A DNA stretch of 24,000 bases from Sphingomicrobium sp. (GTDB lineage: Bacteria > Pseudomonadota > Alphaproteobacteria > Sphingomonadales > Sphingomonadaceae): the NCBI GenBank assembly GCA_035637935.1, contig DASRAY010000139.1, forward strand, positions 12,500-36,499, in the 5' to 3' direction. The position numbers were made by a program, and so were the translations under genes. Positions 1 to 2,009 of the stretch are shown piece after piece. The notes under the pieces are model-generated. The model saw only the letters and a program-made list of their open reading frames with translations, searched no databases and was not told the DNA's origin. Each line of letters starts with the position of its first letter. Within the stretch, counting starts at the first letter, position 1.

Positions 1-166
1 GGATCGGTTCGATCCGGACGCCGAGGCCAATGCATTCGGTGAACTTCACTTCGGCGGACTCGACCCGAAGGAGGAAATTGTAATTGCGGAACATCTCCGA
101 CGGGACGAGCGGGCCCGCGGCCGCGCCGGCGGGCGGGGTGGCGGGAGGAGGGGCGGCGGTTGCCAT
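1..166 (-). CDS. Contractile-tail inner tube protein (T4 gp19 / Afp1-Pvc1-like), N-terminal part only; gene continues past the left edge
   Basis: Truncated, so absent from the ORF track. Reverse-strand ATG at 166-164, with AAGGAG (rc of 175-180) 8 nt upstream and 17 nt after the sheath stop. Hand translation: MATAAPPPATPPAGAAAGPLVPSEMFRNYNFLLRVESAEVKFTECIGLGVRIEPI. The NF.LRVE...F.E..GL block resembles the N-terminus of gp19-type tube proteins. Its position directly after a sheath gene fits this call. Confidence 0.65.
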   Translation of the reverse strand, partial: MATAAPPPATPPAGAAAGPLVPSEMFRNYNFLLRVESAEVKFTECIGLGVRIEPI

Positions 167-183
167 GGTCTAGGCTCCTTGGT

Positions 184-1356
184 TCAGGCGGTTTCGACGG
201 TGGTGCCGGCCGCGGACTGGCCGATGCGGATGATGAGGAACTCGGCGGGCTTCACCGGAGCGATGCCGACGACGACCACGACCTGGCCGAGATCGACGAT
301 CTCGGGCGGGTTGGTTTCGCGGTCGCATTTGACGAAGAAGGCCTGCTCCGGCCGGTCGCCAGCGAGCGCGCCCTGGCTGTGGATGACCCGCAGGAAGTTG
401 CCGATGTCGCGCTTGAGATCGTTCCACAGCGGCGTGTCGTTGGGCTCGAAGATCACCCAGCGCGTGCTGATCGCGATCGATTCCTCGATCATCGCGAACA
501 GCCGGCGGACGTTGAGATACTTCCAGTTGCTGTCTTCGCCGGCGAGCGTGCGGGCGCCCCACACGCGGATCCCCTCGCGGCTGAAGAAGCGAATGACGTT
601 CACGCCATATTTGTTGAGCCCGTCATGCTCGGCCCGCGAGACGATCTTGGTCAGGCCGATCGCACCGCGGATCGGGAGATTGGCCGGCGCCTTGTGGACT
701 CCGCGGGTCGAATCGGTTTGCGCCCACAAGCCGGCCATGTGGCCGGAGGGCGGGGCCGACACGATCGCCTTGGGGTCGATCGCATCGGCGACGCGCAGCC
801 ACGGGAAATAGAACGCGCCGTAGCCCTTGTCGCTCATGCGCGGCCGAAGGCCCGGCCTCTGCTTGCTGCCCTTTTCGGGGGCGTCGACCATTCCGGCGCG
901 CTGCAATTGTTCGATGTCGTCGACCGTCGGCGGCCCGTCGAGGATGGCGACCCGGTCCTTCATCGATTCGGCGGCGTCGAGCAGCGCGCCGTAGGACTGC
1001 TGGTCGGTCCGCCCGGGCGCGGCGATGATCGCAATCTCGTCGATCAGGTTGAGCGCATCGAGCCCGGTGCTGACCGGGTCGCCGTCCGCGATGTTCGCGA
1101 TGTAGCAGCGCGACCCGCCGTTGGCGAAGAAGCCCTGCACGGCGTTGGCGAGCGCATTGTTCGGCTTCGCCTTGTCGCCGACGAACAGGCGGTAGAACGC
1201 GCCCCAGTTGTCGACCGGTATCGCTTCGCCCTTCCCGGCATCCGCAATCGGCGCCGTGCCGACGAATCCGGCGGTTGACGTTCCGACCGCTTCGATCGGC
1301 CGAGCACCGGTATCCTGTTCTTCTATGAAGACGCCTGGGCTGAGGTACGAAGGCAT
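184..1356 (-). CDS. Contractile tail sheath protein (phage tail sheath family; eCIS Afp2/Pvc2-like)
   Basis: 390-aa ORF. The N-terminus MPSYLSPGVFIEEQDTGARPIEAVGTSTAGFVGTA is the canonical start of tail-sheath family proteins. GGAG lies about 9 nt upstream, and the gene begins only 2 nt after the upstream gene's stop. The antisense ORF 160..1278(+) is Arg/Ala/Gly/Asp-rich shadow. Confidence 0.9.
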   Translation of the reverse strand: MPSYLSPGVFIEEQDTGARPIEAVGTSTAGFVGTAPIADAGKGEAIPVDNWGAFYRLFVGDKAKPNNALANAVQGFFANGGSRCYIANIADGDPVSTGLDALNLIDEIAIIAAPGRTDQQSYGALLDAAESMKDRVAILDGPPTVDDIEQLQRAGMVDAPEKGSKQRPGLRPRMSDKGYGAFYFPWLRVADAIDPKAIVSAPPSGHMAGLWAQTDSTRGVHKAPANLPIRGAIGLTKIVSRAEHDGLNKYGVNVIRFFSREGIRVWGARTLAGEDSNWKYLNVRRLFAMIEESIAISTRWVIFEPNDTPLWNDLKRDIGNFLRVIHSQGALAGDRPEQAFFVKCDRETNPPEIVDLGQVVVVVGIAPVKPAEFLIIRIGQSAAGTTVETA

Positions 1357-1358
1357 AG

Positions 1359-2009
1359 TCAGGACTCCATCGCGAGAGTGACGAGGTTGGAATCGCCGGG
1401 CTTGAGCTCGACGTCGGCGGTCTTTCCCTTGGCGGTGACGGTTGCTTTGACCGCGAGCCCGGCCGGAGCGGCGAACGCGAAGCCGCCGTCATTGCCGGTG
1501 ACGATCAGCCGGTCGCTGTTGCGGACCTGGACCTTGGCCCGGGCGATCGGGAAGCCGTTCTCGGCCCGGACGAAGCCGGCGATCCGCGCTTGCGGAAGGA
1601 GGTTGATGACGGCTTCGCGCACCGGCTTCGCGCGCGGCAGGTCACGGCGGCGCTGCAGCACGAAGGTGGCTGACAGCGCGCCGTTCTCGCCGCGAACGAC
1701 GTCGCCGAAGTCCTCGCGCTCGAGCATCGCAAAGGCGAGGTCGGCGAGCGCCTGGTGGCCGGCGAGGGCATCGGCATATTGGACGTCGAACGCATATTCG
1801 AGCTCGAGCCGGCCGGAGACCGCGTCGTTCGAGCGCGGACCGCGCACCCCTTCGATCCGCGCCAGGCGGACCGTCACGTCCCGATCGGTTTTTGGCTTGG
1901 CGGAGCCTGGCGCTTGGGATGCCGCCTGCACCGCTGCGTCCGGCAAAATGCCCCGAACCCAGTCGACAAGACTGCCCGTCACATCCGCAGCATCGTGCGT
2001 GCTCGCCAT
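1359..2009 (-). CDS. DUF4255 / Pvc16-like N-terminal domain protein with C-terminal carboxypeptidase-regulatory-like (CarboxypepD_reg) beta-sandwich; first gene of the contractile-system operon
   Basis: The track ORF 1359..2096 begins at a TTG. I prefer the internal ATG at 2009 (MASTHDAADVTGSLVDWVRGILPD...), which matches the usual DUF4255 start pattern. The C-terminus IAGFVRAENGFPIARAKVQVRNSDRLIVTGNDGGFAFA fits the CarboxypepD_reg pattern (G.V.d..g.Pi..A.V.v......tD..G.F). The order DUF4255, sheath, tube is typical of eCIS loci rather than myophage tail modules. Confidence 0.6.
   Translation of the reverse strand: MASTHDAADVTGSLVDWVRGILPDAAVQAASQAPGSAKPKTDRDVTVRLARIEGVRGPRSNDAVSGRLELEYAFDVQYADALAGHQALADLAFAMLEREDFGDVVRGENGALSATFVLQRRRDLPRAKPVREAVINLLPQARIAGFVRAENGFPIARAKVQVRNSDRLIVTGNDGGFAFAAPAGLAVKATVTAKGKTADVELKPGDSNLVTLAMES

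Follow-up and report, generated by a model that had tools for sequence, protein, structure and literature searches.

What kind of contractile machine begins at the left-hand end of this stretch of DNA, and where in the cell would it act? The window, 24,000 nucleotides (nt) assigned to Sphingomicrobium sp. (contig DASRAY010000139.1, positions 12,500 to 36,499), starts with three leftward genes, which the sequence-only reading had taken for the head of an eCIS-type operon (extracellular contractile injection system) and not for a myophage tail module. Positions 1-2009 are probably the promoter-proximal end of an 11-gene, ~10-kb contractile injection system (CIS) operon on the chromosome of a Sphingomonas-like soil bacterium; we put the joint probability of the whole reading set out here at about 0.7. 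Profile matches and gene order assign the locus to lineage II of the Afp/PVC-like CIS superfamily; it is neither a myophage tail module nor a type VI secretion system (T6SS i-iii).

The operon and its nearest relatives

The window itself contains the following genes of this operon (lengths in amino acids, aa):

2009-1359, minus strand: cap (tail-terminator) gene, 216 aa, ATG at 2009, stop codon ending at 1359
1356-184, minus strand: contractile sheath gene, single and short, 390 aa, ATG at 1356
166-1, minus strand: the 5' 55 codons of the inner-tube gene, ATG at 166, leaving the window; 164 aa at full length on contig L001 (see below)

The gene order, the spacers of 2 nt (cap to sheath) and 17 nt (sheath to tube) and the good ribosome-binding sites described earlier can all be read directly in the window. 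The Shine-Dalgarno sequences are GGAG at -12 to -9 of the sheath ATG and AAGGAG at -14 to -9 of the tube ATG. The sheath was correctly recognized, matching both Pfam sheath domains, Phage_sheath_1 (E value of 1.7e-16) and Phage_sheath_1C (E 9.4e-15). The tube translation reads MATAAPPP...FRNYNFLLRVES.... and includes the block to which the earlier tube assignment had pointed. The 55-codon fragment alone has zero Pfam matches; the full-length 164-aa protein matches Phage_T4_gp19 (E 1.6e-31), TIGR02241 (101 bits versus a cut-off of 62), and CIS5_fam (83 bits).

All genes to the left of position 1 were read from L001, a 38-kb metagenome contig that is 99.8% identical to the window across 11.4 kb. 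The identical sheath protein sequence is found on 13 metagenome contigs from several samples. After cap, sheath, and tube, L001 encodes, in this order:

Pro-rich protein (g04), after the tube: 296 aa
LysM tube initiator: 334 aa, CIS_tube (E 3e-5) and a LysM-like C terminus
fused VgrG spike: 498 aa, Phage_GPD and Phage_base_V
PAAR-like protein: 115 aa, Cys/His-rich, assigned by position
gp25: GPW_gp25 (E 5e-25)
Cis11 (baseplate J): 850 aa, TIGR02243 (247.7 bits versus a cut-off of 155.8)
short Cis12 (g10): 200 aa, TIGR02242/Tail_P2_I domain near threshold, covering part of CIS12_fam
small membrane protein (g11): 179 aa, N-terminal transmembrane (TM) helix
polytopic membrane protein: opposite strand, after g11

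All 11 genes from cap to g11 are intact and abut or overlap, often at start/stop codons. The sequence-only reading had proposed a search for further CIS parts in this direction. A LysM initiator, VgrG, gp25, baseplate J, and a Cis12-like gene are all present on L001; second sheath and tube genes and a recognizable tape measure are absent there and in the relatives, and Afp6 is absent from the locus as well. Cis11 is extended at its C terminus by ~380 aa, in which two Asp-box motifs occur. Both ends of the Pro-rich protein are conserved (..RYPGAP.HWLE.. and ..WP.LP....EQ..G.WS.) and its middle is variable; the protein ranges from 292 to 516 aa across the relatives and has no match in Pfam or the PDB. 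Its position, conserved ends, and variable length make a role as length determinant or tape measure possible.

The first gene had been labeled DUF4255/CarboxypepD_reg. The second half of this label stands, as residues 143-214 match CarboxypepD_reg (Pfam E 2.6e-7, slightly below the curated cut-off). The first half fails in direct searches: Pvc16_N (PF14065/DUF4255) has no Pfam match in the 216-aa protein even at E<=10 and is found in 0 of 72 cap homologue clusters. However, it is backed indirectly. The homologue in a Chloroflexota metagenome-assembled genome (MAG) (L009:7212-7898) contains Pvc16_N (34.3 bits versus a cut-off of 27) in addition to CarboxypepD_reg and aligns with the cap-family profile over 189 columns spanning both domains (hhalign probability 94%, E 1e-7). 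A Foldseek search with the AlphaFold model of the cap (predicted local distance difference test, pLDDT, 79.7) retrieves Pvc16 (6j0f_A), the PlPVC1 cap (9qgn_A), 2gjv, and several phage tail terminators, all with modest scores (E ~1e-3). On account of these three results, the first gene probably encodes a divergent cap/terminator, with a terminator-like N-terminal domain remotely related to Pvc16_N and a transthyretin-like CarboxypepD_reg domain at the C terminus. A comparison of the cap-family profile with PDB sequences yielded only noise (RNA-phage A1 protein, E 0.005). The cap gene is located immediately 5' of the sheath gene in L007, L087, L088, L089, L091, L092, and L096; in L009 a PLD gene separates the two.

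Searches of all PDB sequences with the sheath-family profile show that the closest solved sheath is Streptomyces Cis2 (8bky, E 1e-118; 8bl4, E 4e-116), followed by the haloarchaeal T6SS-like sheath (9ezm, E 9e-113), Pvc2 (E 1e-68), and the sheaths of the Anabaena tCIS (All3325), AlgoCIS, and Afp (E 1e-58 to 1e-66). The same profile matches R-pyocin at E 1e-17 and T4 gp18 at E 1e-15. The sole PDB match of Cis11 is S. coelicolor Cis11 (9gtp_1K, E 7.5e-51), and the 14 PDB matches of the tube at E<=0.01 are all CIS tubes, with Pvc1, All3324, and Afp1 at the top. The earlier hint at a Streptomyces-type system fits these matches, and the nearest characterized relatives of the locus operate within the cell or at its membrane.

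The annotated S. clavuligerus cluster has a gene order identical to that of the L001 operon. BLASTP searches with the L001 proteins detect its sheath (45% identity), tube, LysM, VgrG, gp25 (45%), Cis11 (30-52%), and Cis12 (29%) homologues. The Streptomyces CIS (CIS-Sc, dbeCIS subtype IId; PMC10066040, PMC10020575, PMC12237407) shares the order cap, sheath, tube, LysM, fused VgrG, gp25, Cis11, small Cis12 (200 to 220 aa), and, at the fibre position, a bitopic membrane protein, and both systems lack a conventional fibre and a typical tape measure. In contrast to the compact locus, Streptomyces has an AAA+ ATPase that is required for function (707 aa in S. clavuligerus), two tube genes, and a sheath of 534 aa with an extra domain (390 aa here). 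The haloarchaeal T6SS-like CIS (subtype IIa), which has the second-closest solved sheath, is marked by a conserved membrane protein (PMC11566945) that parallels the ~225-aa polytopic protein described below; its cluster, unlike the compact one, includes an ATPase, 14 structural genes in two subclusters, and a split VgrG (PMC6899500).

Canonical eCIS (Afp, PVC, AlgoCIS; dbeCIS lineage I) have homologous sheath, gp19-type tube, LysM, fused VgrG, PAAR position, gp25, Cis11, and, probably, Pvc16_N-type cap. However, the compact locus lacks the Afp15/Pvc15 ATPase, Afp13 fibres, Afp6, and a recognizable Afp14, encodes one sheath instead of three paralogues and one tube instead of two, has Cis12 cut to ~200 aa, and occupies ~10 kb instead of 20 to 30 kb, with membrane proteins conserved in the cluster. 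R-type pyocins and P2-like tailocins resemble it in the absence of an ATPase, the ~390-aa sheath, the small baseplate wedge, and a possible lysis function next door. They differ in the distant sheath, and the locus has instead a gp19/TIGR02241 tube, a fused VgrG hub-spike, and a cap that is probably Pvc16_N-like; their fibre, chaperone, gpE/E' pair, and tape measure were not found here.

A search of 50,697 phage records gave at best 36% identity over 75% of the query for the sheath and <=24% identity for Cis11. Neither the 24-kb window nor the 10 kb of L001 to its left (a 38-kb context) contains a capsid, portal, terminase, or integrase gene, in agreement with the earlier remark that nothing there is phage-like, and scans of the window revealed no tRNA genes, Rfam matches, or att-like repeats. 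The T6SS membrane-complex genes TssJLM, which had been named as the sign of a T6SS, are absent from the window and L001; neither they nor the TssB/C sheath or ClpV have a Pfam or NCBIfam match, and similarity to TssE and VgrG is weak only.

The compact family, its ATPase question, and its membrane proteins

Relatives with the same compact architecture have the following sheath identities:

metagenome relatives L087, L088, and L092: 74-79%
Caulobacter (L007, L008): 67%
Sphingomonas trueperi (L089): 65%
Polymorphobacter (L096): 65%
Bradyrhizobium japonicum (L095): 64%
Chloroflexota MAG (L009): 56%
Deinococcus sp. AJ005 plasmid (L091): 53%
Paracoccus plasmid (L090): 51%

These loci group together in a crude neighbour-joining tree, built without bootstraps from the C-terminal region of the sheath. 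The sheath search returned at least 8000 candidates at E<=1e-10; the best 120 of them are 61-99% identical, 389 to 415 aa long, and come mainly from soil and rhizosphere metagenomes. The S. trueperi copy is located beside Tn7-like tnsA/B/C/D genes (L089:1-8086) and that of B. japonicum beside an integrase fragment and a methylase (L095:1-1083), whereas the Paracoccus and Deinococcus copies reside on non-mobilizable plasmids. These plasmid locations and the Tn7-like and integrase neighbours indicate that the module has spread horizontally across phyla. Judged by the tree and by gene content, the compact CIS family is monophyletic and horizontally mobile and is represented in Alphaproteobacteria, Deinococcota, and Chloroflexota; its loci encode neither an AAA+ ATPase nor fibres. 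Its hosts are mostly diderms, in contrast to Streptomyces.

The ATPase was sought by tblastn within 10 kb of the sheath gene, using five CIS ATPases (four from other sheath loci and that of S. clavuligerus). Matches were found in 28 or 29 of ~90 sheath-anchored loci, including Bradyrhizobium, Pseudomonas fluorescens, and the neighbouring locus L016, but neither in the window nor in the 12 related loci (L001, L007-L009, and L087-L094). This search superseded a Walker-A regular-expression scan for AAA+ ATPases, which was too strict (4 matches). In the complete 66.7-kb plasmid of Paracoccus sp. MC1862, which carries the whole module, the only AAA-annotated ATPase is a ParA-like protein beside ParB. 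No fibre-like genes were detected on L001 with Pfam or PHROGs, and none in the relatives. The search for an AAA+ ATPase that had been suggested earlier thus came out negative for the locus and for every relative, and so did that for tail fibres.

According to published descriptions, eCIS regions 'invariably' encode an AAA+ ATPase, one of two features that separate them from phage tails (PMC10020575), and Afp15 and Afp16 are among the eight listed core eCIS components (PMC6899500). With one of the two features missing, 'eCIS-type' is valid by descent and not by the published definition. Of the earlier statement, membership in the CIS superfamily and the non-phage nature are therefore borne out, while the absence of ATPase and fibres leaves the locus outside eCIS as published. 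A metagenome survey excluded clusters that have Cis13 and Cis14 without Cis15 and Cis6 (PMC12210884), and Geller et al. demanded >=10 recognized core genes (PMC8213781). As such filters ask for the ATPase or for at least 10 core genes (PMC6899500, PMC8213781, PMC12210884), an ATPase-less family of 10 to 14 genes may have been filtered out. No published description of the compact family or of its modular adaptor was found in the searchable literature; the ATPase-less family is widespread and apparently not previously described.

The Chloroflexota operon contains two insertions, a PLD-family gene between cap and sheath (L009:7994-9934) and a Peptidase_C58 (YopT-like) gene between VgrG and the PAAR-like gene (L009:15551-16171). 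Both are likely effectors carried within the structural operon. An M23 peptidase is encoded near the same CIS, and trypsin-like proteases and a peptidoglycan-binding protein near that of Paracoccus.

Three conserved membrane proteins accompany the compact module, namely a bitopic adaptor, a g11-like protein, and a polytopic protein (x12-like). The adaptor is found in L007-L009, L087-L091, L095, and L096, at these coordinates among others:

Caulobacter, L007:19465-20655 and 20699-21145
S. trueperi, L089:18731-20125 and from 20164
B. japonicum, L095:14326-15255
Paracoccus, L090:22689-23852
Deinococcus, L091:23745-24704
Polymorphobacter, L096:18964-19920

Its gene lies directly 3' of the Cis12 gene, or one gene farther in Deinococcus, and occurs in tandem copies in Caulobacter and S. 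trueperi. The protein consists of a conserved N-terminal domain of ~115 aa without a signal peptide (MPSFEIPDGP...VTNKS...EWF.I.GE.ER...FRLRV.AVNDPDND), one TM helix (FPWW...), and a variable outer domain. The latter is formed by PASTA repeats in most loci, a ricin-B lectin domain in B. japonicum, and an FG-GAP/TcdB-like domain in S. trueperi. The PASTA domains, unusual for Alphaproteobacteria, hint at transfer of the adaptor from a monoderm lineage. Position and topology match those of Streptomyces CisA, which has a cytoplasmic N terminus, one TM helix, and a periplasmic sugar-binding-like domain, is encoded at the usual fibre position, and is needed for firing (PMC12237407, PMC10066040). The g11-like protein (~160 to 190 aa) has an N-terminal TM helix, is Cys-rich in the closer relatives, and is present in Paracoccus and Deinococcus. 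The x12-like polytopic protein (~225 aa) of the window lineage is 42-44% identical to those of Paracoccus or Deinococcus.

In the window lineage the adaptor gene appears only as a remnant. Between the Cis12 stop codon and the next ATG (L001:19002-19040), there is only ATGCCGACTCTTGCAATCCCGGTGGTGGCGAAATGA, which encodes 11 codons, MPTLAIPVVAK, and a stop; the relatives start with MPTFEIPDGP.... All other family loci that extend to this position have a full gene of ~310 to 460 aa. The deletion ends exactly at the start of g11, and the operon structure is kept. On this comparison, the adaptor gene is deleted in the window lineage, with an 11-codon scar left on L001.

A ceramidase-like membrane protein (PF05875, weak) is encoded a few kilobases from the CIS, on opposite sides of the operon, in L001 (20788-21173) and L007 (7747-8793). 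This may be a coincidence, as the Sphingomonas-like lineage and Caulobacter both make sphingolipids.

The divergent hydrolase operon

To the right of the cap gene, the window contains a control region and an operon of the opposite orientation:

2010-2381: divergent control region, 372 nt
2198-2193 and 2175-2170, minus strand: candidate CIS-operon promoter, TCGCAA, 17 nt, TATAGT, in a block conserved in three lineages
2382-3398, plus strand: d1, predicted secreted/periplasmic protein, family unrecognized
3395-4483, plus strand: d2, predicted inner-membrane protein, beta-rich extracytoplasmic domain (~280 aa) between two TM helices
4480-5667, plus strand: d3, disordered Ser/Thr/Pro-rich N terminus of ~90 aa
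5686-6420, plus strand: d4, N-acetylmuramoyl-L-alanine amidase (Amidase_2, E 3.8e-11), no signal peptide
6425-11550, plus strand: d5 to d8, candidate effectors
d5, plus strand: 94-aa protein
d6, plus strand: M10/astacin-like Zn protease (Astacin/Peptidase_M10)
d7, 7527-9458, plus strand: 643 aa, HExxH motif (VIAHELTHAL), disordered N terminus of ~50 aa
d8, plus strand: Trypsin_2 (E 9e-21) fused to Endonuclease_NS (E 2e-39)
from 11560, plus strand: d9, 324 aa, no assigned family
12539-14728, plus strand: KAP-family P-loop NTPase (KAP_NTPase, E 3.9e-29), TM helices inserted in the NTPase domain

The control region, earlier estimated at ~370 bp, measures 372 nt. Alignment with its L087 and L088 counterparts reveals an invariant block, GACTCGCAA...AATATA. 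The TCGCAA-N17-TATAGT pair might be the CIS promoter and is offered as a candidate; a consensus promoter/terminator scan of the intergenic region gave no canonical sites, sigma-70 included.

The link between the two operons that had been suspected from this arrangement recurs in every context examined. The d1-d2-d3-amidase set diverges from cap-sheath-tube in 5 of 5 contexts (window/L001, L087, L088, L092, and a JGI contig); these include the two distant d2 relatives that were looked up (48% and 61% identity), both located beside a compact CIS. Outside this subclade, none of the relatives examined has the d1-d4 module. The effector candidates d5 to d8 are also found in L088 and the JGI contig; in L092, d5 and d6 are followed by the beginning of another gene, where the contig ends, and L087 has none of d5 to d8. 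KAP is found in two contexts, the window lineage and L087, where it adjoins the amidase, and is absent from the JGI contig; d9 and KAP are thus variable members of the operon. A defence-system reading of the operon was rejected, as the PADLOC matches comprise only the generic KAP domain (QatA, PifA, and PDC-S20, with no partner genes) and a protease domain and make up no complete system.

From the ATG at 2382, d1 has a Sec-type N terminus (MRTFFRGRG, a hydrophobic stretch, ATA-NPQ). It has no match in Pfam, PADLOC, or PDB sequences and is conserved beside the CIS in L087, L088, L092, and the JGI contig. The AlphaFold2 model of d2 (pLDDT 86; predicted template-modelling score, pTM, 0.80) places the TM helices at residues 13-38 and 328-358. 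Foldseek searches with this model gave no convincing match in the PDB or BFVD (probabilities <=0.18 and <=0.54, respectively; TM-scores <=0.15), which argues against a holin-, spanin-, or TssL/M-like protein, and the modelled fold may be undescribed. The d2 family comprises only 44 clusters, all >=46% identical. The d3 protein has no Pfam or PDB match; its family includes 81 representative clusters among 1.84 billion proteins, and 10 distant members have no Pfam domain either. No relation of d1, d2, or d3 to TssJLM is detectable. With its HExxH motif and no match in Pfam, PADLOC, or the PDB, d7 may be an uncharacterized metalloprotease effector.

Mode of action, competing explanations, and the remaining genes

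The particle of sheath, tube, and baseplate would assemble in the cytoplasm without the need for an ATPase, which appears to be dispensable for assembly, since ATPase mutants of PVC and the Streptomyces CIS still form particles (PMC10020575). Because the adaptor and the polytopic protein are conserved, the most likely model for the family, drawn by analogy, is that an adaptor recruits the particle to the cytoplasmic membrane, where it would be fired, as in the Streptomyces CIS with CisA or the haloarchaeal T6SS; firing at the membrane would replace fibre-mediated target binding after release. It could be directed outward, as in T6SS, or serve stress-triggered self-killing, as in Streptomyces. 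The PASTA and lectin domains would make suitable anchors or sensors for cell wall or glycans. In the absence of ATPase-dependent loading, cargo is more likely to be carried on or near the spike, an arrangement that fits the effector gene beside VgrG in L009. In the window lineage, the divergent operon most likely supplies effectors (amidase, proteases, and nuclease), a cell-wall or lysis function, or both.

A broader proposal, which we hold only tentatively, is that the compact family represents an unrecognized class of envelope-coupled, ATPase-independent CIS in diderms, Deinococcota, and Chloroflexota, with firing governed by the modular adaptor. With its outer domain, the adaptor would bind or sense peptidoglycan or glycans, and with its cytoplasmic domain it would dock the baseplate, making the system either a minimal T6SS-like weapon or a suicide or abortive-infection device triggered by cell-wall damage. 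In the Sphingomonas lineage, d1 (periplasmic), d2 (inner membrane), d3 (cytoplasmic), and the amidase might form a replacement trans-envelope module that took over the coupling, with the proteases and nuclease as payload.

Several considerations weigh against membrane recruitment and the reading as a whole. The system is known here from its genes, and the parts to the left of position 1 were read from the near-identical L001 and lie outside the window itself. The PAAR-like, tape-measure-like, and propeller assignments have no hidden Markov model or structure match and are positional guesses. The recruitment step relies on analogy, and the adaptor, with its short, folded N-terminal domain of ~115 aa, is not similar in sequence to the Streptomyces protein encoded at the CisA position. 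Its outer domain varies in the manner of swapped receptor-binding proteins. The window lineage lacks the adaptor, unlike Streptomyces with its CisA, so its locus may work differently or be decaying. An ATPase may be encoded elsewhere in the genome, in a split locus (cf. PMC6899500), and the amidase and membrane proteins would equally fit a lysis cassette for an extracellular particle.

A canonical extracellular CIS is an unlikely alternative. Particles would be released by lysis through Amidase_2 and the membrane proteins, bind prey through the C-terminal domain of Cis11 or the PASTA/lectin protein, and inject the proteases and nuclease encoded next door, with the ATPase encoded elsewhere or dispensable. 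Superfamily membership and the probably Pvc16_N-like cap are eCIS hallmarks, and there are precedents for split loci (PMC6899500). The operon is inherited together with membrane proteins and a peptidoglycan amidase that has no signal peptide, toxin-like enzymes adjoin it, and relatives differ in the binding domain encoded at the fibre position, in the manner of receptor-binding proteins. However, that variable protein lacks a signal peptide and has a genuine TM helix, features that are hard to square with a fibre on a released particle, and there are no fibre genes. The ATPase is found in 0 of 12 related loci and is missing from the complete plasmid. Of the proposed lysis genes, d2 is far above holin size and has no phage fold match, and d1-d4 are missing from the relatives examined outside the subclade.

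Less probable still is a tailocin-like bactericidal particle of the CIS lineage, which would kill by membrane puncture without cargo, a mode of action that would explain the absence of the ATPase. R-type bacteriocins likewise have no Cis15 (PMC12210884); the sheath (390 aa) and tube (164 aa) are short and single-copy, and the wedge (gp25, Cis11, and a 200-aa Cis12) is small. Nevertheless, sheath, tube, and Cis11 are far nearer to CIS than to pyocin/P2 (for the sheath, E 1e-118 with Streptomyces Cis2 versus 1e-17 with pyocin), the locus lacks fibre and chaperone genes, a recognizable tape measure, and a gpE/E' pair, effector-like genes are found within the L009 operon, and the conserved membrane proteins would be left without an explanation.

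The same low probability applies to a decaying or disabled CIS in the window lineage, whose conserved adaptor gene was deleted. The remnant between g10 and g11, set against the full gene in other family loci, is what one would expect, and CisA is essential for firing of the Streptomyces CIS (PMC12237407). Against decay, the other 11 genes on L001 are intact and tightly packed, the deletion boundary falls exactly at the g11 start with the operon structure preserved, and the identical sheath sequence recurs in several samples (13 contigs). A reading as the tail module of a (defective) myovirus prophage has almost no probability left: the source annotations (phage tail sheath and phage tail proteins) and the integrase fragment near the B. 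japonicum copy would suit it, but the 38-kb context has no capsid, portal, terminase, integrase, or tRNA gene, the phage matches are as remote as given above, and a fused VgrG, the CIS gene order, and, probably, a Pvc16_N-type cap are present.

The compact family offers a minimal parts list for a contractile injector and a natural test of the purpose of the eCIS ATPase. A modular CisA-like adaptor could explain how CIS without fibres are coupled to membranes, a question raised by the Streptomyces, Anabaena, and haloarchaeal systems. Cultivable carriers exist in Caulobacter, B. japonicum, S. trueperi, and Paracoccus, and the co-inherited hydrolases of cell wall, protein, and nucleic acid are candidate effectors.

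The rest of the window is ordinary chromosome, with genes for a polyprenyl synthetase, an M13 peptidase, and a two-component system whose response regulator (22402-23067) clusters at >=90% identity with Sphingomonas proteins. An open reading frame on the minus strand (14694-15341) matches the UDP-GlcNAc 2-epimerase profile (347 positions) only at 144-346; the gene is probably truncated and may mark the right-hand edge of an inserted island of CIS and hydrolase genes. Two GC-rich elements of 31 nt (18782-18812 and 20946-20976), 94% complementary to each other and each forming a hairpin (TCCCCCTCCCTGGCC...GGCCAGGGAGG), flank the M13 peptidase gene and look like repetitive extragenic palindromic (REP)-like or terminator elements.

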